This document shows, one piece after another, positions 2,219 through 55,385 of a DNA stretch of 64,000 nt; the first letter of the stretch is position 1; each line of letters begins with the position of its first letter. The notes beneath the pieces were generated by a model. It was not told where the DNA came from. It searched no databases and saw only the letters and a list, made by a program, of their open reading frames with translations. The stretch lies in assembly GCA_003152075.1 (NCBI GenBank), contig PLZG01000093.1, positions 15,445-79,444 on the forward strand, written 5' to 3'. The stretch comes from a candidate division FCPU426 bacterium (GTDB taxonomy: Bacteria; Oederibacteriota; Muellerivitia; Muellerivitales; Muellerivitaceae). A program made the translations under genes and the position numbers.

Positions 2219-3487
2219 ATGATGAAAACCCTGAAGTGGCTGGCCTTAGGAATCGTTTTAACTCTGTTTTGTTCGCAGGGGGCAATGGCCGTACCGATGT
2301 TCGCGAGGATGTACAGTTACAATTGCACCATGTGCCACGATCCGGGTTATGGCCAATTGAATAAGTTCGGGTACAATTTCCGCGCGGCCGGTTACCGAAT
2401 CCCCGCTGACATAGGGAAGGACATGAACGGCGGGAAGTTCGACATGACCAATTACATCGCCGCCCGATATTCCGCCGGTGGCAGCCTTAAAACCACTTCT
2501 AACGCCAATGGTGCTCCCACACCCGACAACGCCAGTTTCACCTTGGGGGGTGCCAGCATCTTTCTCGGAGGGGGAATCAGCAAGAATTTTTTCTCCTACA
2601 GTGAATTGGGCTTGGGAAACGGAACCAACATTTTCTCGGGAACAGCCCCCAATTTAAACAACGCTAAGATTGGATTTGTCACCGGAAGCGAAAACCAATT
2701 CTTTACGGTGAGAATCGGTAAATTCGGCGCCGATGGTTTCGGCGGATCGGACAGAGGTCCAGTGGGAAACTCGACCATCTCTTCTGCGATAAAGCCCACC
2801 GGAACCGGCTTGGAGTTGGGATATACCTACCAGGATACCCGAATCACGTTGGGTTTCTTTGACGGGATTCAAAATCCTCAAGTCACCGGTCTCGTGACTA
2901 GCAATTCAAAAGCGGTTACTTCCAGCAGCGTCCAAGGCCCCACCGCCGACTCCAATAACTCGAAGGACATCCAGCTGTTCGTCAATCAATTCATCGGTGA
3001 TGACGGGCTGGCTGTGAACGCAGTTTATTACAATGGGTTCAACGCCTCGGTTGGCGCGACCGCCGCGGCGGGCGGAACCGGTGACGCGGTTGGCCAAGAG
3101 TACTTCAACACGGCCATCTTCATCTCTTCTCCCATCGTTAAGAAGCTGGGCATCAAGGTAGGCGCGGAAATGGGCGCGACCAATATAGGAATTTTCCCAA
3201 CCACCGGAATTGTCGGCCCCACTAACGGCGGCTTTTTCGGCGAATTGGATTACGCGATGGACGACCTTACCCCCTTGGTCTTCCGTTACGACTATACAAC
3301 AACCGACTTCAACACTTTGTACACGGACACGCAGAAATTCACCCTGGGTGCCCTTTTACCCTTCGTCGAACAGGTTTACATGAACCCAACCTTCGCTTTG
3401 ACGATGAACAACGCCGGGTTAGTCAACGGTGCAGATGCTTACAACAACATCTATACGTTTACTGATTCATTAGCCGTATTCTTTTAA
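2219..3487 (+). CDS. cyc2: Cyc2-like fused monohaem c-type cytochrome / outer-membrane beta-barrel porin
   Basis: Signal peptide (MMKTLKWLALGIVLTLFCSQGAMA). A single CxxCH (CTMCH) lies within 20 aa of the mature N-terminus. The remaining ~380 aa is G/T/N/Y/F-rich with alternating amphipathic strands and ends in an aromatic residue (..AVFF), which is typical of beta-barrel OMPs. The N-terminal motif is paralogous to ORF 47633..49012. Acidithiobacillus Cyc2 and Leptospirillum Cyt572 have this architecture. Confidence 0.6.
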   Translation: MMKTLKWLALGIVLTLFCSQGAMAVPMFARMYSYNCTMCHDPGYGQLNKFGYNFRAAGYRIPADIGKDMNGGKFDMTNYIAARYSAGGSLKTTSNANGAPTPDNASFTLGGASIFLGGGISKNFFSYSELGLGNGTNIFSGTAPNLNNAKIGFVTGSENQFFTVRIGKFGADGFGGSDRGPVGNSTISSAIKPTGTGLELGYTYQDTRITLGFFDGIQNPQVTGLVTSNSKAVTSSSVQGPTADSNNSKDIQLFVNQFIGDDGLAVNAVYYNGFNASVGATAAAGGTGDAVGQEYFNTAIFISSPIVKKLGIKVGAEMGATNIGIFPTTGIVGPTNGGFFGELDYAMDDLTPLVFRYDYTTTDFNTLYTDTQKFTLGALLPFVEQVYMNPTFALTMNNAGLVNGADAYNNIYTFTDSLAVFF

Positions 3488-20805: not shown

Positions 20806-21486
20806 ATGATGGGCATCATGAACAAGATCGATGCCCTGAGAAAAACGGAGATGTTCGGCTCCCTTTCGGGCGAGGAATTAAAAGTTGTCGCCAAATCCTG
20901 TGTGGAAAAACCCTTGAAAAAGGGCGAAACACTCTTTTGCGCGGGGGACGAGGCCCGGGGCCTTTACGTGATCGCGAAAGGTTCCTTGCGGGCTTTCCGG
21001 ACAAACGAGGACGGCCGGGAACAAGTCATCCACGTGGAGCGGGCCGGCACCACCATGGCCGAGGTCCCCGTTTTCGATGACCGGCCCTATCCCTCCACGG
21101 TGGTGGCGGAGGAGGACAGCGACGTCCTTTTCATTTCAAAAGCGGACGTGAAACGGCTATGCCTCCAACACCCGGCCATCGCCTTGTCGGCTTTGAAACT
21201 CCTGGCAGCTCGCCTCAGAAAAACGGCTGCCCTGGTTGAATCACTCTCCCTTCGTGAAGTCGACCAACGCCTGGCTGCTTTCCTCCTCCAGGAATTCAAG
21301 GAAAAGCGTTTGAAAAAACTCCAACTGCCGACCAATTCGGACATCGCAACCCGCCTAGGCTCGGTTCGGGAAGTGGTTTCCCGCGCCTTCGCCAAACTGG
21401 AATCCGAAAAACTGATCTCGGTCGACAAGCACCGCAACGCCGAACTGTTGAACGAGAAAGGTCTAGGCAGTTACTCCGGAAGTTGA
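20806..21486 (+). CDS. Crp/Fnr-family transcriptional regulator (no N-terminal Fe-S Cys cluster; Dnr/NnrR-like)
   Basis: cNMP-binding beta-roll (..GETLFCAGDEARGLYVIAKGSLRAF..) and C-terminal HTH (..TNSDIATRLGSVREVVSRAFAKL..). The start was chosen at MMGIMNK because the upstream GTG-initiated extension of the track ORF overlaps gene 20543..20731. Confidence 0.85.
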   Translation: MMGIMNKIDALRKTEMFGSLSGEELKVVAKSCVEKPLKKGETLFCAGDEARGLYVIAKGSLRAFRTNEDGREQVIHVERAGTTMAEVPVFDDRPYPSTVVAEEDSDVLFISKADVKRLCLQHPAIALSALKLLAARLRKTAALVESLSLREVDQRLAAFLLQEFKEKRLKKLQLPTNSDIATRLGSVREVVSRAFAKLESEKLISVDKHRNAELLNEKGLGSYSGS

Positions 21487-22206
21487 CCTTTCCCCAGCCA
21501 ATTTTTCCGCCATCGGAAAAAGTACGTTGTTTTCCAAATGGATGTGGTGATGCAGGTCCTCTTCCAGTTCAATGAAAGCCTGGTAAAAAGACCGGAAAGT
21601 GACGCAAGCGTCATCGGGCGGTGTAAAGTTCCCTGTCAATCGGCGCGCTTCCCTCAATTGTTCCCCTACCGTCTCGTGGTCAGCCATGAGAACAGCCCGG
21701 GGCCCCGCTTGGAATCCCTCAAAGGGGAAGAAAAGGCCTTCGTCACCTTCACCTTTTACCGATTTCTCCAAGGCCAAAAGATAGGGGAAGGCGATCTGTT
21801 CTTCTTTTAACATGTGGTGTTCCAATTCGTCGGCCATTTGGATGAAAACCTTTCGAACCGCCAAGAGGTCAGGATGGTTTTGTCCGTGAACCCGGGCCAC
21901 CTTTTCGGACAGTTTGTCGAGTAGGGCCAATTGCTTGCGGGTATAAACATGATGTTTTTCCAGAAGAAACTCCACCAACTCGGAAAGTTTTCGCTCGCTC
22001 CAGTCTTGTTCTCTCGAAGGGGATACAGGAAGACTCTCCAAGGAACGGACCACCTTTTCCACCGAAGCCCCCGCCTTGTCGCAAGCGTCCTTTAACGTCT
22101 TATTCCCCCCACAGCAGTAATCGATTTTCAAGCCTTCGAACAAAGGAATGGCGGACGGGTACTGAATCACGATACTGGCCACTGTTTGGTTGACTTCAGC
22201 TTTCAT
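21463..22206 (-). CDS. ytfE: Iron-sulfur cluster repair di-iron protein (RIC / YtfE / ScdA family)
   Basis: N-terminal ScdA_N motif (..FEGLKIDYCCGG..) followed by a hemerythrin-like di-iron domain (H..E/HxxxE ligands). Paralogous to 50710..51444. Convergent with the Crp/Fnr gene. Confidence 0.8.
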   Translation of the reverse strand: MKAEVNQTVASIVIQYPSAIPLFEGLKIDYCCGGNKTLKDACDKAGASVEKVVRSLESLPVSPSREQDWSERKLSELVEFLLEKHHVYTRKQLALLDKLSEKVARVHGQNHPDLLAVRKVFIQMADELEHHMLKEEQIAFPYLLALEKSVKGEGDEGLFFPFEGFQAGPRAVLMADHETVGEQLREARRLTGNFTPPDDACVTFRSFYQAFIELEEDLHHHIHLENNVLFPMAEKLAGERSTSGVTA

Positions 22207-22565: not shown

Positions 22566-24125
22566 ATGGGGAATATTTTGAAGAATCTAACGATCGTATT
22601 AGGGGCTCTTTTCCTCCTGGATTCCGCGCCCAGTGTGGTTCTTTCCCAATCCTGTTGCGTAGACCGTAATTCCATCATCAACACCTTCGCAGGAACAGGA
22701 GTCAGCGGTTATACGGGGGATGGGGGGCCCGCCACTTCAGCCACCTTGGGCCAGGTTTTCGGCGTTTGCTCGGACGCGGTAGGAAACGTCTATATCTGCG
22801 TCAGCGACCCGGGAAACTCGGTCATCCGCAAAGTTTCCATCTCGGGCATCATCACCACCTACGCCGGAAACGGGACCGCCGGTTATTCGGGGGATGGGGG
22901 GCCCGCGACCTTGGCCCAGATGAACCGGCCCAGCCACGCGGCTCTGGACGCCGCGGGAAACCTTTACGTCACCGAATTCCAAAATAATGTCGTTCGAAAA
23001 ATCACCCCGGGTGGGATCATCAGCACCTTCGCCGGAACGGGCACCGCCGGTTACAGCGGGGACGGCGGTCCCGCCAACCTGGCTACCTTGAACGAACCCT
23101 TCGGCGTGACGGTGGATTTTTCGGGAAACGTCATTGTCGCCGATACCTGGAACAGTGTGCTGCGCAAAATCAACATTTCAGGAATCATCAGTACCATTGC
23201 CGGAAATGGGACCGTTGGTTATTCCGGGGATGGAGGTCCCGCCACTTCGGCGTTGATTGGTTTCCCAGAGGCCGTATCGGTGGATCCCTACACGGGGGCC
23301 ATTTATTTCTTCGACGACGGCTATGGAAGGATCCGCATGATCGATACCTGCGGCATCATTACGACGGTGGCGGGAAACGGGGCGCTCGGGGGGACCGGTA
23401 ATGGCGGGCCCGCGACCTTGGCCGAGTTGGATGACGTCCATGGATTTGCTTTTTGCGGGAACAACATTTATTTCAATGACCTCAACAATGGTCTCCGGGA
23501 AATCGATAACTGTGGCATCGTCCATCTTCTCGCGGGACCGAGCAGCAGTACGGGTGACGGGGGGCCGGTGACTCTGGCTGCCGTCAATTTTCCCGTGGGA
23601 TTGACCACGGATGGGCAGGGAAATCTCTATGTGGGGGAACAGGGCGGTTATCGAGTGCGTAAAATCAGTTATGACTGTTCACCCACGCCCACCCCTGCCT
23701 GCAATACCCCGACCCCAGCTTGCACAGTACCTCCGACGTCCACCTTCACCTTCACGCCGACCGCCACTTTCACCCCAACCCCGACATTTACGGCAACCTC
23801 AACCCCCACCATCACCAACACCCCGACCGTGACTTTTACCCCGACCCCTCTTTGTGCCGTCCAGGTTTGGCCTGATCCTTATAATCCAAATTACGCGAAT
23901 GGTGGATTTCTCAAAGTGGATTGCCTGCCGCCGCGGGCCGTAGTTTCCCTCTATACAGTTTCAGGGGAATTGGTCCGAATCCTGTACGAAAATGGCGGGC
24001 TGGCGCAATGGGATGGCCACAACCAATCGAGCGCCTGGGTTTCCCCGGGCATTTACTATTACGTGATCCAGCAAGACACCCGGGTTTTGGGAACGGGGAA
24101 GTTCCTCGTGATTAACAACCGCTGA
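22566..24125 (+). CDS. Secreted NHL-repeat beta-propeller protein with Pro/Thr-rich linker and T9SS-type (Por_Secre_tail / FlgD-Ig-like) C-terminal domain
   Basis: At least eight tandem repeats of AGxGxxGYSGDGGPAT...N.P.GV..D..GN.Y..D..N..IRKI (NHL). A (TPTP/TFTP)n linker. The C-terminal 85 aa reads VWPDPYNPNYANGGFLKV....VVSLYTVSGELV....GLAQWDGHNQSSAWVSPGIYYYVIQ...LGTGKFLV, matching the T9SS C-terminal sorting-domain pattern. Confidence 0.7.
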   Translation: MGNILKNLTIVLGALFLLDSAPSVVLSQSCCVDRNSIINTFAGTGVSGYTGDGGPATSATLGQVFGVCSDAVGNVYICVSDPGNSVIRKVSISGIITTYAGNGTAGYSGDGGPATLAQMNRPSHAALDAAGNLYVTEFQNNVVRKITPGGIISTFAGTGTAGYSGDGGPANLATLNEPFGVTVDFSGNVIVADTWNSVLRKINISGIISTIAGNGTVGYSGDGGPATSALIGFPEAVSVDPYTGAIYFFDDGYGRIRMIDTCGIITTVAGNGALGGTGNGGPATLAELDDVHGFAFCGNNIYFNDLNNGLREIDNCGIVHLLAGPSSSTGDGGPVTLAAVNFPVGLTTDGQGNLYVGEQGGYRVRKISYDCSPTPTPACNTPTPACTVPPTSTFTFTPTATFTPTPTFTATSTPTITNTPTVTFTPTPLCAVQVWPDPYNPNYANGGFLKVDCLPPRAVVSLYTVSGELVRILYENGGLAQWDGHNQSSAWVSPGIYYYVIQQDTRVLGTGKFLVINNR

Positions 24126-49798: not shown

Positions 49799-49974
49799 AG
49801 GCGGTTTTCAATCCGCTAAATGATCTGGATCATATTCCCCTTTTCCGCGAAACATTAGGATACAACCTGTATTGCAGTTCGGGACCAAAACCCCGAGCTT
49901 GAACGGCGGAAAAGTATCAAATAAAAAAGGAGGCGGTCTTAACCAAAGTTAAAATCGACTCTGTTGGAATTTGG

Positions 49975-50015
49975 AAAACAAGGCCGGACCTGGCAAGGCT
50001 CCGGCCTTTTCTTTT
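49975..50015. terminator. Bidirectional intrinsic terminator
   Basis: aaaacaAGGCCGGAcctggcaaggcTCCGGCCttttctttt, flanked by an A-run upstream and a T-run downstream. Confidence 0.6.
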
Positions 50016-50121
50016 AAGGAGCCTTTCTTTTACTTTTATACCTTTTGGGAAGCCTTGGAATTTTTCAATATTTGAATCACTTCCCAATCACTGACCGGTC
50101 GGAAGTCCTCGAAGAATTCCC

Positions 50122-50709: not shown

Positions 50710-51444
50710 CTAATCTAAAAAACCCATCTGATTGGCCCGCTTCAAGAGAATGTTATTCTCCAAGTGGAGATGTTGAATGTTGTCTTTTTCCAGTTCCAGG
50801 AGGGCATCATAAAGGGGCTGGAGCATCATCCGCCTGGATTCGGGCGCGCGAAAATGGTCGGTGAGCCGGTCGATTTCCTTCCATTCCCTGTCCGTCATTC
50901 CATGCTCCCACTCCAACACGCGCAAGGGATGGTTGAAGGAGTCGTATTTACTGAAAGTTTGGGGAAGGGGCCGGTCGTGCAGAAGGCACTGTTCTGCTTC
51001 AATTAAGTAAGGAAAGACCACCTCTTCTTCGCGCCTCAAGTGGTTCTCCATTTCATCGGCCATAGTGTTGAAAAGACTATGGATGGTGGCTAGTTCGGGG
51101 GGCGGCCCCCCGGGACCCGTAACCACCTTATACATCAGACCTTTGACACGCCTCATTTGGGACCGAGCGTAGGTGTGGTGTTTCTTGAGGATGTAACCGA
51201 TCAGCTCAGCTAGTGGTTCCTGTCGCCAGTCCCGCTCCTTATACCATTCCTTTGGGGCAGGCTCGATTTTTTCCAGGGCCTCGGTAACCTCCTCCAATGG
51301 GATGCCGACGTAATAACAAGCGTCTTTCAAAGTCCGACCGCCCTCACAGCAATAGTCGATCCCGAATTTCTCGAATAGGGGGATGGACTCCTTCATTTCC
51401 ACCGCAATTTCAGCGACGCTTTGGGATGGATTAATCTTCGCCAT
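50710..51444 (-). CDS. ytfE: Iron-sulfur cluster repair di-iron protein (RIC/YtfE family), paralogue B
   Basis: N-terminal ..FEKFGIDYCCEGG.. ScdA_N motif plus a hemerythrin-like domain. Collinear with 21463..22206. Confidence 0.8.
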   Translation of the reverse strand: MAKINPSQSVAEIAVEMKESIPLFEKFGIDYCCEGGRTLKDACYYVGIPLEEVTEALEKIEPAPKEWYKERDWRQEPLAELIGYILKKHHTYARSQMRRVKGLMYKVVTGPGGPPPELATIHSLFNTMADEMENHLRREEEVVFPYLIEAEQCLLHDRPLPQTFSKYDSFNHPLRVLEWEHGMTDREWKEIDRLTDHFRAPESRRMMLQPLYDALLELEKDNIQHLHLENNILLKRANQMGFLD

Positions 51445-52977: not shown

Positions 52978-53703
52978 ATGAAAAAGTTCTCAGGAATTTT
53001 GTGTTTAGTCTGTCTTTCCGCCATCGGTTTCGTCGCGACCGCGTACGCACAAGTCAATGTCGGGGTCCGGATCGGAGCCAATGGTGGCCTTGACGCCTTT
53101 CACGTGGCCATCGGGGATTATTTCAAGGTGTCCGACCAACAGGTGGAAACTTGCCAGGACAGCAATATCTCCGATGAGGATCAACCGGTGGTTTTTTTCA
53201 TGGCCCAGCGGGCCAACGTTCCCCCCGAATCGGTAATTCTGCTCCGTTCCCGCGGGTGGAGCTGGATGCAAATCGCCCTTCACTTCCGCCTCAATCCCCG
53301 CATTTTCTATACCCCCGGCACTTACGAGGGGACGCCCTATGAGAACGGCCACAGGGCCTTTCACGGAAGGGGCCGGATCCGGCTTTCCGACGCGGACATC
53401 GTCAATTTCGTTAACTTGAAATTCGCGTCCGAGCATTATGGGCATGACCCGCGGGAAATCGCCCAGATGCGGGCCCAAGGCCGGAGCTTCCGTGAAATCC
53501 ACGACGGCTTCGCTCAAAAAGAGGAAAGGATCGAGTGGGACGCCAAGGAAGAACCTCGCCACCGGGATAACAGGAGAATGAGACAGGATGACCGGCCTCA
53601 CCCGGACCAAAATGGGCGGAATAGGGATAATAATGGGGATCAAAACGGAAGGGGCGGGAACGACCACAAAGACCGTAACGACCGGCATGACGACAACCAA
53701 TAA
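52978..53703 (+). CDS. Secreted hypothetical protein with highly charged R/D/N/H-rich low-complexity C-terminal tail
   Basis: Classic signal peptide (MKKFSGILCLVCLSAIGFVATAYAQ). The tail reads RDNRRMRQDDRPHPDQNGRNRDNNGDQNGRGGNDHKDRNDRHDDNQ. The antisense ORF of similar length lacks any such features. Confidence 0.5.
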   Translation: MKKFSGILCLVCLSAIGFVATAYAQVNVGVRIGANGGLDAFHVAIGDYFKVSDQQVETCQDSNISDEDQPVVFFMAQRANVPPESVILLRSRGWSWMQIALHFRLNPRIFYTPGTYEGTPYENGHRAFHGRGRIRLSDADIVNFVNLKFASEHYGHDPREIAQMRAQGRSFREIHDGFAQKEERIEWDAKEEPRHRDNRRMRQDDRPHPDQNGRNRDNNGDQNGRGGNDHKDRNDRHDDNQ

Positions 53704-53742: not shown

Positions 53743-53778
53743 AAAAGCCGGGAATCTTTGGTTCCCGGCTTTTTCATT
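53743..53778 (+). terminator. Rho-independent terminator
   Basis: aaaaGCCGGGAAtctttgGTTCCCGGCttttt. Confidence 0.65.
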
Positions 53779-53833: not shown

Positions 53834-54043
53834 CTAAACCTGGCTTTTCCTGGCCCGCCGGGGACTGTCCTTTTTCCCCCCCCAATCCGACGGCGGGACT
53901 AGTTTTCCTTCTTCATCATAGGTAAAGCGCACTTTCCCGCGCAGGGCGCACCCTAACATGCCGGGGATACAACCCACTCTCACCCTATCGCAATAGGATT
54001 CCCCACTTTGATAACGGCAAGACCATCCGGGCATGAATCCCAC
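53834..54043 (-). CDS. Small Cys4 protein (69 aa), paralogue B (GTG start)
   Basis: WSCRYQSGESYCDRVRVGCIPGMLGCALRGKVRF core, about 60% identical to ORF 20543..20731 over 34 aa. Preceded by a long structured leader. Confidence 0.45.
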   Translation of the reverse strand: MGFMPGWSCRYQSGESYCDRVRVGCIPGMLGCALRGKVRFTYDEEGKLVPPSDWGGKKDSPRRARKSQV

Positions 54044-54080
54044 TCCTTGTCAGTTGAAGGTGGATATTGTAAAAGGGCTT

Positions 54081-54116
54081 AAAAAAAGCCCCGGACCGCT
54101 TGGTTCCGGGGCTTCC
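54081..54116 (-). terminator. Intrinsic terminator (minus strand) located 40 nt upstream of the small Cys4 ORF start
   Basis: On the minus strand: GAAGCCCCGGAAccaagcGGTCCGGGGCTTTTTTTAAG. It either ends a long pirin 3' UTR or an sRNA, or acts as an attenuator in the leader of the Cys4 ORF. Confidence 0.55.
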
Positions 54117-54326
54117 AGCAACATCTTCAGCAAGATTCATTGATGGTTATGGGCCTTTGCCCAGCGTCATTGAAACGCAACCCTTGAACCTTTCCAACGA
54201 TTGTACCGACCAACCTCCTACTAACATCTGAAGGACCCGACCTTCGGGGCCTCACCAACAACAACTCAGCAACAAACATCAACAACCTAACTGAACTCAC
54301 CGGCTTCGCCAGGCTGGATTCCTTGA

Positions 54327-54470
54327 CGGTTCGGGACCGCAGTCCCCGCAACACCCTTAAGGGCGCTTCAACCGGAACCCTTACCAGTTCCACCGCTCTC
54401 GACGGCCGTGTTCCTCATCGGTTTGGGACCTCAGTCCCCGCTGCACCTCTAAGGTGCCTTGATTTGGAAC
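54327..54470. repeat. Two ~52-bp imperfect direct repeats (about 80% identical), each containing a GGGAC-N4-GTCCC hairpin, in a 530-bp noncoding region
   Basis: R1 is at 54327-54378 and R2 at 54419-54470 (cggtTYgggaccKcagtccccgcWRcacc.YtaaggK.cc...). An AAC-rich tract lies at 54255-54292. No plausible ORF on either strand. Confidence 0.45.
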
Positions 54471-54577
54471 AGTTCCTACGGTTCTATTAATACAACTCTT
54501 TTTAATAAAACTTTATGATTTGAATCAGGTTGGTTTTTTTAAGGTAATTCATGCTGGGATGCTTTTTTACCCCGATT

Positions 54578-55279
54578 TTATCCAGGCAGGTCAAAGTAAA
54601 GAAAGTGGGAATCCTTCTCAGCTAGAACGTTAAAGGAGTTTTCCTCCCAAATGGCAAGTCCGTCACCTTCGGAAAGCTTCTGGTCGCCGACCTTCAATTC
54701 GCCGCTGGCCAATTGAATCCAGCCTTTGCGATCCCAATGCAGGGTCAGGTCCAGCTTCGTCCCGGCCGTGGGCCGAGCCAAGTATAAATTAGCGTCCTGA
54801 TTGAGGGTAATGGACCCTTCCCGACCGTCCTTGGAGGCCGCCAGAAAGAGATTTCCTGTAGCTAATTCCTTCGAAAAATCCTTTTGTGCGTAGCCGGGCT
54901 TCAGACCGTCCTCCGCCGGCATGATCCAAATCTGAAAAAAGTGCGTTTCCTGGTCCTTCAAGTGGTTATGCTCCGAATGCCTTACCCCCGTTCCGGCGCT
55001 CATGCGCTGTACTTCCCCAGGCAAAATGGTTGATGCCGTTCCCATGGAATCCTTGTGATCCAGGGCCCCGTTTAAGACGTAAGAGATGATTTCCATGTCC
55101 CGATGACCGTGGGTGGGGAAGCCCGTCCCCCCCTGGATACGGTCCTCATTGATCACCCGCAAATCGCCGAATCCCATTTCGGTTTTGTCAAAGTACTCGC
55201 CAAATGAAAAGGTATGCCGGGACTTGAGCCATCCCATGTCGGTCAAACCGCGTTTGTCGGACTGCCTGAGTGTCATCAT
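54578..55279 (-). CDS. Pirin-family bicupin protein
   Basis: N-terminal cupin metal site ..GFPTHGHRDMEIISYVLNGALDHKDSMG.. (HxH...E...H). Both cupin domains are present. Start set at MMTLRQ. Confidence 0.85.
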   Translation of the reverse strand: MMTLRQSDKRGLTDMGWLKSRHTFSFGEYFDKTEMGFGDLRVINEDRIQGGTGFPTHGHRDMEIISYVLNGALDHKDSMGTASTILPGEVQRMSAGTGVRHSEHNHLKDQETHFFQIWIMPAEDGLKPGYAQKDFSKELATGNLFLAASKDGREGSITLNQDANLYLARPTAGTKLDLTLHWDRKGWIQLASGELKVGDQKLSEGDGLAIWEENSFNVLAEKDSHFLYFDLPG

Positions 55280-55371: not shown

Positions 55372-55385
55372 ATGACAGCCGTCAT
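55372..55385. promoter_or_regulatory. Palindrome ATGAC-agcc-GTCAT about 90 bp upstream of pirin
   Basis: TGAC-N4-GTCA core. An extra half-site ATGAC lies 11 nt upstream. Confidence 0.4.

Follow-up and report, generated by a model that had tools for sequence, protein, structure and literature searches.

A candidate stand-alone gene for a large modular RNA between the pirin and Cys4 genes of a candidate division FCPU426 bacterium

Background

Few bacterial RNAs several hundred nucleotides (nt) in length are known to be structured and to have conserved nucleotides at their junctions, and unexpected biochemistry has emerged from some of them. Here we describe a predicted RNA of about 400 nt, encoded on the minus strand of the gap between a pirin gene and the gene for a small Cys4 protein in a candidate division FCPU426 bacterium (GenBank assembly GCA_003152075.1, contig PLZG01000093.1, positions 15,445 to 79,444 of the forward strand). 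The whole 64,000-nt stretch is referred to as the window, and all coordinates are those of the window unless a metagenome contig, designated by an L number, is named. Comparison with homologues delineates a predicted stand-alone RNA gene with three homologous modules (A, B and C), a terminator at its end and a promoter layout of the CRP/FNR type.

The closest described systems each share part of this design. Like the RNA described here, CsrB, CsrC and RsmX, RsmY and RsmZ derive from stand-alone genes that have a palindromic activator site upstream and end in a Rho-independent terminator, and comprise repeated structured units that suggest several copies of one partner. Unlike them, the present RNA is without GGA-in-loop motifs, its GGA triplets being paired and covarying, and it is assembled from three-way junctions, each about 65 nt in length, rather than simple hairpins. 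FnrS and AniS are FNR-dependent small RNAs (sRNAs), the former about 120 nt in length, lightly structured and acting by pairing. The present RNA gene similarly lies behind a CRP/FNR-type palindrome in the class II position, with membership of an oxygen/redox regulon probable, but its product differs from FnrS in its length of about 400 nt, its three conserved junction modules and the absence of an Rfam match. In GcvB, the G/U-rich region known as R1 pairs with C/A-rich sites in mRNAs, and the present RNA likewise contains a G/U-rich, apparently single-stranded tract, whose GUUG repeats could pair with C/A-rich sites; this tract is, however, its least conserved part, size and architecture are unrelated to those of GcvB, and Rfam gave no match. 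Tandem riboswitch aptamers, such as those of the glycine riboswitch and the triple glnA/glutamine arrays, resemble the present RNA in that two or three homologous junction modules in series, with invariant junction and loop nucleotides, are followed by a terminator. Here, in contrast, there is no conserved downstream gene, the RNA of contig L094 runs antiparallel to its neighbours and no riboswitch model matches at E <= 10. Finally, the OLE, GOLLD, ROOL and raiA RNAs are also long, elaborately structured, lineage-restricted RNAs with conserved unpaired nucleotides that were found by comparison, but the present RNA matches none of them in Rfam 15, by sequence or by structure, and its internal triplication of a module is distinctive.

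A comparison with Rfam had been proposed in a sequence-only reading of the gap, which took it for a candidate sRNA or attenuator leader. With the 4227 covariance models of Rfam 15, no match at gathering level was found in the whole window, while a relaxed cut-off of E <= 10 in the region between 53600 and 54800 added only terminator look-alikes and a CsrC match of 16.2 bits, the threshold of that family being 61 bits. The RNA in four homologues (L085, L094, L095 and L096) gave no match at E <= 1. The RNA as such matches no described family, and full-text literature searches for its invariant sequence strings found nothing relevant. It would form a family of its own among the stand-alone structured RNAs of bacteria.

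Homologues and extent of the RNA

Two direct repeats in the gap, described in the sequence-only reading as about 52 bp in length, proved to be longer, at 67 nt each (54312-54378 and 54404-54470; 72% identity, spaced 92 nt), and each of them contains the sequence GGGAC-N4-GTCCC. A covariance model, R1, was built from the two modules that these repeats represent (A and B) only. In the order of transcription, the predicted RNA is composed as follows, with the basis of each assignment in brackets:

54079 to 54484, minus strand: predicted RNA transcript of about 400 nt (5' end approximate; 3' end at the U-tract)
54472 to 54485, minus strand: 5' leader, AGAACCGUAGGAAC (hand reading of the homologue sequences)
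54408 to 54472, minus strand: module A, three-way junction (R1, 66.1 bits, E 7e-19)
54381 to 54407, minus strand: A-B intervening segment, loop (C/U)CGUCGA(G/A)AG and UGGUAAGG (homologue alignment)
54316 to 54380, minus strand: module B, three-way junction (R1, 60.6 bits, E 4e-17)
54296 to 54313, minus strand: hairpin CUGGC-GAA-GCCGG, then invariant UGAG (92% paired)
54251 to 54295, minus strand: G/U-rich linker with repeated GUUG, the AAC tract of the sequence-only reading (homologue composition)
54233 to 54251, minus strand: variable hairpin GGCCCC-GAAGGU-CGGGUCC, holding CCCGA-AGG-UCGGG (fold and alignment)
54123 to 54202, minus strand: module C, the 3' domain, with outer helix AAUCGUUGG...GCUGAAGAU (R1 end-to-end alignment)
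54081 to 54115, minus strand: Rho-independent terminator, hairpin GCCCCGGA...UCCGGGGC and U7 (conserved in five homologues)

Four homologues of this RNA, full-length or partial, occur on contigs from soil and peat metagenomes, with identities of 94-75%. The comparison set consists of five, including one partial, and a sixth, L086, is a fragment covering the 3' end only. The Cys4 protein has one 80%-identical orthologue, carried by contigs L085 and L086, in which the gap ahead of the Cys4 gene is represented by its 3' part and the order RNA-Cys4-NmrA is retained. The RNA segments of the window and L085 share 93.75% identity over 272 nt, up to the terminator U-tract, followed by a sharp drop (to roughly 60%, by eye) in the 45-nt spacer after the terminator. 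The Cys4 open reading frame (ORF) shares 82.6% nucleotide identity with that of the orthologue and the NmrA gene beyond it 88.7%, and the non-coding stretch is therefore the best conserved part of this neighbourhood.

Scanning of the metagenome collection with a motif common to both repeats, GCGGGGACTGNGGTCCCRAACC, identified at least three further contigs, with full-length homologues in L096 (78% identity), L095 (75%) and L094 (75%). Homology to these three is restricted to positions 54493-54112 of the window, starting at the -10 region and stopping shortly ahead of the terminator; each of the three has a terminator, though a diverged one. Viral contigs were also scanned for the RNA and gave only one chance match, inside coding DNA (L097).

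The minus-strand terminator noted in the sequence-only reading is borne out, with a perfect 10-bp stem followed by U7. Its arms (54086-54095 and 54105-54114) are complementary at 10/10 positions around a 9-nt loop, and it was missed by a consensus terminator scan because this loop exceeds the limit of 8 used in the scan. The terminator is retained in all five homologues, with three pairs altered on both sides, and in each respect has the form of an intrinsic terminator, a G+C-rich hairpin with the U-tract directly after it on the transcribed strand. The helices of the RNA contain many G-U pairs which suit the minus strand only and would be A-C mismatches on the plus strand, and the minus strand is therefore the functional strand; the terminator U-tracts and the orientation of the promoter agree. 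Furthermore, the RNA as a whole folds better than shuffled versions of it (z = -2.84).

Modular structure and covariation

Modules A and B follow one plan, comprising a helix P1 (GGGYUCC...GGARCCC), a P2 hairpin of variable sequence and an invariant P3 hairpin (GGGAC-UGNG-GUCCC), with AGCG or a similar sequence at the P2-P3 junction and AAACCG-N4 at the P3-P1 junction. In module A the helices are P1 UGUUCC/GGAACA, P2 GCACC/GGUGC and P3 GGGAC-UGAG-GUCCC, while module B is formed by P1 GGGUUCC/GGAAUCC, P1b GGUU/AACC, P2 GCGCCC/GGGUGU and P3 GGGAC-UGCG-GUCCC. By hand reading, six of the eight copies of A and B can form an inner GGU(U)/(A)ACC helix, which is without covariation support. All four full-length homologues keep the 92-nt period from A to B, and GUCGUCGAAAGC in the intervening segment is invariant among L094, L095 and L096; the short stem of this segment is weakly supported. 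A tentative reading of the 5' leader is that it may pair with the P1 5' strand of module A, excluding P1 of that module, by means of the candidate pairings GAAC/GUUC in the window, AGAG/CUCU in L095 and GGGG/CUCC in L094.

Eight A and B copies from four homologues, whose rows are not independent of one another, were aligned by hand with N-padding. In this alignment 97.2% of the proposed pairs are standard, against at most 63% when the partners are slid by 1-3 columns, and five pairs are changed on both sides, for example from U-A to C-G in P1 and from A-U to G-C in P2. The covariation score was reached by 0/500 shuffles. Recognition of the sequence itself, beyond the upkeep of a helix, is what the invariant P3 hairpin and the AAACCG junction look like, because the stem and loop of P3 never vary in the eight copies.

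Although built from modules A and B only, R1 placed its third-best match in the 64-kb window on the 3' domain (54193-54131; 15 bits, E 0.05), and it matched the module-C-equivalent region of two homologues, at 26 bits (E 1e-4) in L094 and at 19 bits (E 0.018) in L095. The RNA is as such read as a triplication of one three-way-junction module, of which module C would be a diverged copy, because the A/B-only model finds the 3' domain from end to end. In its predicted fold, a long outer helix closes a junction bearing two hairpins, with P1 AGGUUC/GAAUCU, P1b GGUU/AACC and the hairpins GCGUU/GACGC and UGGGC/GCCCA. This region is 100% identical to that of L085 across more than 100 nt. Within the 3' domain and terminator 94.7% of cells are paired and seven changes are double-sided, three of them in the terminator, a result matched by 0/500 shuffles. 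Structural covariation across homologues, which the sequence-only reading had named as the observation to look for, is present in the module helices other than P3, the 3' domain and the terminator.

The segments between modules B and C are of a different character. The hairpin at 54296 to 54313 has an apical pair altered on both sides (C-G, U-A and G-U). The AAC-rich tract noted earlier in the linker is present as five copies of CAAC in 54254-54283 of the plus strand and is GUUG-rich on the minus strand, the linker of the window RNA containing seven GUUG. Every homologue has a linker of 67-73% G+U with 3-7 GUUG, predicted to be largely unpaired, while its length and exact sequence vary. The CCCGA-AGG-UCGGG hairpin, likewise present as described (at about 54236-54248), falls within the variable region and is unconserved; its stem has a C-to-A change in L085, and the variable hairpin as a whole is swapped for a different hairpin in L094 and L096 and absent from L095.

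Two further attempts at the structure were set aside. MAFFT misregistered L094 and L095 in the 5' half, and the RNAalifold fold from the raw MAFFT alignment was unconvincing in that half, with P3 of module A mispaired and P1 missed. A hammerhead-like reading of the junction sequence CCGAUGA was rejected, as the other core elements are absent and Rfam gave no match.

Promoter and putative regulon

The elements that may govern transcription of the RNA are the following:

54516 to 54527, either strand: palindrome TGATTCAAATCA, TGAY-N4-RTCA with core TGA-N6-TCA, centred about 41.5 nt upstream of the presumed start
54487 to 54492, minus strand: -10-like hexamer TATTAA, at 23 nt from the palindrome, aligning with TATAAG (L096, L094) and TAAAAT (L095)
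20818 to 21486, plus strand: CRP/FNR-family regulator of 222 amino acids (aa), with cNMP_binding and HTH_Crp_2 domains

The 12-bp palindrome is common to the window (TGATTCAAATCA), L096 (TGATCTAGATCA; 1937-1948) and L094 (TGACTTAAGTCA; 1808-1819), and in all three lies 23-24 nt from the -10-like hexamer (TATTAA or TATAAG). The core TGA-N6-TCA is a hallmark of the CRP/FNR family, and -41.5 is the class II position of activators of this family. The position given here presupposes a start site 7 nt past the -10 box and, on this assumed start, the region has the predicted layout of a class II CRP/FNR-dependent promoter.

Sites of the form TGAY-N4-RTCA number 18 in the window against 2.5 expected, an approximately sevenfold excess that 0/100 shuffles reach. 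They mostly take the form ATGAY-N4-RTCAT and, by comparison against the ORF list, 14 are intergenic, three are in coding DNA and one lies across the start codon of the CRP/FNR-family gene. The sequence TAnnnT follows 22-24 nt downstream in 10/36 palindrome orientations, with a peak at 23 nt, against a background of 2.25%. Genes flanking the palindromes include both RIC/ScdA genes and those for a cytochrome c, a membrane pyrophosphatase, a radical-SAM enzyme, pirin and MgtA, the pirin promoter region holding the site at 55373. The palindrome as such looks like the putative operator of a large CRP/FNR-type regulon of respiratory, redox and Fe-S-repair genes. The palindrome at 20807-20818, across the start codon of the regulator, suggests autoregulation. 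The regulator itself has the recognition helix ...VREVVSR... and is without an N-terminal cysteine cluster.

The full set of palindromes lies at 1988, 6701, 19536, 20807, 22270, 28159, 30446, 32377, 34628, 38770, 43217, 49075, 49821, 51498, 51521, 54516, 55373 and 58669. The RIC/ScdA paralogues (ScdA_N and hemerythrin; iron-sulfur repair) are encoded on the minus strand at 21463-22206 and 50710-51444, each with a palindrome upstream. The window also encodes PFOR, a membrane pyrophosphatase, cytochrome oxidase subunits and GTP-PEPCK. In a search for PEPCK homologues, matches of about 70% identity came from a mixture of Bacteroidota and Acidobacteriota.

Proposed role of the RNA

On balance, the gap probably contains an independent gene on the minus strand, whose product, a structured non-coding RNA of about 400 nt, would act in trans and probably belong to a redox regulon. 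The suggestion of a stand-alone sRNA in the sequence-only reading gains support from the differing neighbourhoods of the homologues and the antiparallel arrangement in L094, though the RNA is about 400 nt in length and highly structured. Transcription would be activated by the predicted CRP/FNR-family regulator encoded at 20818-21486, and the level of the RNA would probably rise and fall with the redox/respiration regulon, because the same palindrome precedes many respiratory and redox genes at like spacing. The RNA would then act in trans, its most likely mode being that of a platform for several copies of one protein or possibly a small ligand. Binding of multiple copies of one such partner, protein or ligand, through the repeated invariant P3 hairpins and junction nucleotides is put forward tentatively. 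The G/U-rich linker would provide a second candidate contact, with which an RNA-binding protein or C/A-rich segments of mRNAs might engage. More speculative still is the proposal that the RNA is the founding example of an undescribed class, in which a large modular RNA serves in cooperative binding of a metabolite or multisubunit protein, in assembly or in catalysis within a CRP/FNR-type redox regulon, rather than as an antisense-type sRNA.

Several observations weigh against this interpretation. The homologue set of five, one partial, and the L086 fragment is small, and pair counts are biased towards the proposed structure, because the modules were aligned by hand to fit it. The invariance of P3 means that this hairpin receives zero covariation support, and R1 reported no third module in L096 at E <= 1. 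At the promoter, the L095 palindrome is degenerate only and the -10 hexamer of the window, TATTAA, is without the usual final T. The transcription start, the ends of the RNA and its expression are predictions from the DNA, and the platform mechanism is drawn from the architecture of the RNA.

Alternative explanations

The alternative that survives best, though we consider it unlikely, is that of a base-pairing sRNA, in which the GUUG linker pairs with C/A-rich sites near the ribosome-binding sites of several mRNAs and the modules serve for stability or the binding of a chaperone. A G/U-rich tract with 3-7 GUUG in every homologue, predicted largely unpaired, speaks for such a role, as do the own promoter and terminator, which are typical of trans-acting sRNAs. 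However, seeds are normally the best conserved part of a pairing sRNA, whereas the linker is the least conserved part of this RNA in both sequence and length. The RNA is also 3-4 times longer than is typical, with its invariant positions in the junctions and the P3 hairpin, only two other CAAC-dense C/A-rich segments occur in the window, both within coding regions, and Rfam gave no GcvB match. Binding of a partner by the modules and pairing by the linker are mutually compatible mechanisms.

Two of the remaining alternatives concern the genes bordering the gap, both of which lie outside the RNA:

54578 to 55279, minus strand: pirin / YhaK-type bicupin gene (Pfam Pirin and Pirin_C_2)
53834 to 54034, minus strand: gene for a 66-aa Cys4 small protein (gene callers)

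According to the sequence-only reading, the gap may be a cis-acting leader of the Cys4 ORF, an attenuator or riboswitch, whose tandem aptamer-like modules would control the terminator. It correctly placed the terminator shortly upstream of the Cys4 ORF, but the start at 54043 that it assumed is less likely than the ATG at 54034, which lies 44 nt beyond the terminator; a GTG stands at 54043, the AAGGAG Shine-Dalgarno sequence of Cys4 occupies 54043-54048, and the gene callers give 66 aa. Besides the short distance between terminator and ATG, the leader explanation draws on the lack of a convincing separate Cys4 promoter in the spacer, on the order RNA-Cys4-NmrA held in L085 and L086 and on the tandem three-way junctions, which are reminiscent of tandem aptamers. 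It is nonetheless improbable when the family is considered. The genes around the RNA in L094, L095 and L096 have nothing in common with those of the window or with each other; no Cys4 homologue was found near the RNA in these contigs, nor any common small ORF or conserved co-directional gene after their terminators, so that homologues of the RNA do not share a co-directional downstream gene family, as those of a leader do. In L094 the RNA lies between two plus-strand genes and is antiparallel to both, diverging from a gene for an NADPH-dependent reductase and converging on a LysR-family gene, the stop codon of which touches the RNA terminator; the RNA there is therefore neither a 5' leader nor a 3' untranslated region (UTR). 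Conversely, the Cys4 homologues of L102 (59% identity) and L103 (52%) are preceded by gaps of 72 and 130 nt, respectively, without the RNA. The terminator directly adjoins module C in the window and L085, whereas L094, L095 and L096 carry a variable insert of 25-40 nt between the two, and no conserved aptamer-terminator switch is visible: no conserved terminator/antiterminator alternative pairing was seen in a search that was not exhaustive. No riboswitch family matches. Read-through of the terminator into the Cys4 ORF is possible at this locus (and in L085 and L086), and may, at this locus only, also supply Cys4 transcripts.

An RNA of the CsrB/CsrC/RsmZ type, sequestering CsrA/RsmA by GGA motifs on its tandem repeats, would account for the weak similarity of minus-strand positions 54280-54485 to CsrC (16.2 bits, E 0.025), for the many GGA or AGGA motifs of that strand and for the combination of tandem repeats with an upstream palindrome, an element that also precedes the GacA-dependent rsm genes. 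The match, however, scores far under the gathering threshold of 61 bits. Furthermore, the conserved AGGAA is the 3' strand of P1 and covaries with its partner, GGAAC being replaced by GGAGC in L095 and L094, and module B of L094 loses the GGA altogether (GGAAUCC to AAAACCC). This explanation loses its basis because the AGGAA motifs are paired in P1 and covary, and we regard it as very doubtful.

Equally doubtful is the proposal that the gap encodes an extended, structured 3' UTR of the pirin mRNA, or an sRNA released from this UTR by processing, and lacks a separate promoter. In its favour, the RNA follows pirin directly on the same strand, the interval from the pirin stop codon (54578-54580, minus strand) to the RNA promoter contains no terminator, and the pirin promoter region has the same palindrome. 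However, seven of seven metagenomic pirin relatives (72-83% identity) have short downstream gaps with no trace of the RNA, while a pirin-anchored scan of the genome collection gave, among the matches listed, only relatives of at most 58% identity. The RNA is not beside pirin in L094 and L096, the nearest comparable feature in L095 being a pirin-like ORF (no family match) 2.8 kb downstream, and the RNA has its own promoter-like element, with a conserved palindrome and -10 box. The varied neighbourhoods of the RNA and the RNA-less relatives of Cys4 and pirin therefore cause both the leader and the 3' UTR explanations, each raised in the sequence-only reading, to fail at the family level.

A protein-coding gene or pseudogene on either strand, for which long stop-free antisense stretches in all homologues (plus-strand open frames of about 100 codons) might be cited, is hardly credible, as no frame is kept between homologues, where indels of 1 base and of other lengths indivisible by three break every one, and substitutions preserve base pairs instead. 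In agreement with the absence of a credible ORF noted earlier, the longest ORFs in the gap, of 88 aa (minus strand) and 55 aa (plus strand), have no Pfam match, none of the ORFs over the RNA in the window and homologues is present among 15 billion predicted proteins, and gene callers placed no gene in the gap in two identical contigs.

The Cys4 family and other features of the window

The 66-aa Cys4 ORF is a real gene and belongs to an undescribed small-protein family, with no match in Pfam or NCBIfam. In about 20 cluster representatives, C6, C15, C22, P24, G28, C29, L31, G33 and F37 are invariant, and the consensus reads M-SGWSC..Q...C.R...C.PG..GCVLRGKV.F, with a basic tail after it. AlphaFold gave an unusable model of the protein (mean predicted local distance difference test score, pLDDT, of 55). 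The homologues lie at 2001-2201 in L102 and at 500-712 in L103, the latter directly upstream of a RIC/ScdA gene.

An ORF of 241 aa at 52978-53703 on the plus strand has a signal-peptide-like N-terminus, a low-complexity D/N/R/G-rich tail and no family match. L085 and L086, although syntenic in other respects, do not have this ORF, NmrA following almost directly after Cys4 there, and it therefore represents a lineage-specific insertion. A perfect 12-bp inverted repeat, AAAAGCCGGGAA/TTCCCGGCTTTT, at 53743-53773, with A and T runs on its flanks, is probably a bidirectional terminator for the convergent 241-aa and Cys4 genes; Rfam matches to Thr_leader and sraA were spurious and caused by this repeat.

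The RNA gene is flanked on both sides by a 20-nt imperfect inverted repeat (54019-54038 and 54547-54566; 80% complementary), with one arm just past the pirin stop codon and the other across the Cys4 start codon. It may be due to chance or may be a remnant of the insertion of the RNA gene. Isolated copies of a P3-like hairpin sequence, AGCGGGGACGGCGGUCCC, occur in coding regions at 23055-23072 (plus strand) of the window and at 256-274 of L097, and were rejected as extra modules, being chance matches within coding DNA.

A candidate second small RNA is located at 49821-50016 on the plus strand, between convergent cytochrome c and phosphoribosyltransferase genes. This ORF-free segment begins with a palindrome (49821-49832), with a -10-like TAGGAT 23 nt later, and has a strong terminator (GGCCGGA...UCCGGCC and a U-tract); the fold of some 150 nt of it has a z-score of -3.56. 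No tRNA or transfer-messenger RNA (tmRNA) genes were found in the window. L094 carries a tRNA gene at 3179-3265 (minus strand; 62 bits), 1.4 kb from the RNA homologue, and the weak Rfam matches that overlap this gene, to sX4 and to a plastid 3' UTR motif, are artefacts caused by it.

Significance

Coordinates, a secondary-structure model and a seed alignment are now available for this RNA family, and a plausible misannotation as a leader or attenuator has been corrected. The design is unusual, combining a triplicated three-way-junction module with a GUUG-repeat linker, and its source lineage is that of an uncultured soil and peat bacterium. The tie of the RNA to a dense CRP/FNR-type promoter motif gives a testable hypothesis for when it is made. 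If the modules do bind a protein or ligand, the RNA would represent a new type of redox-linked regulator, multivalent for its partner.

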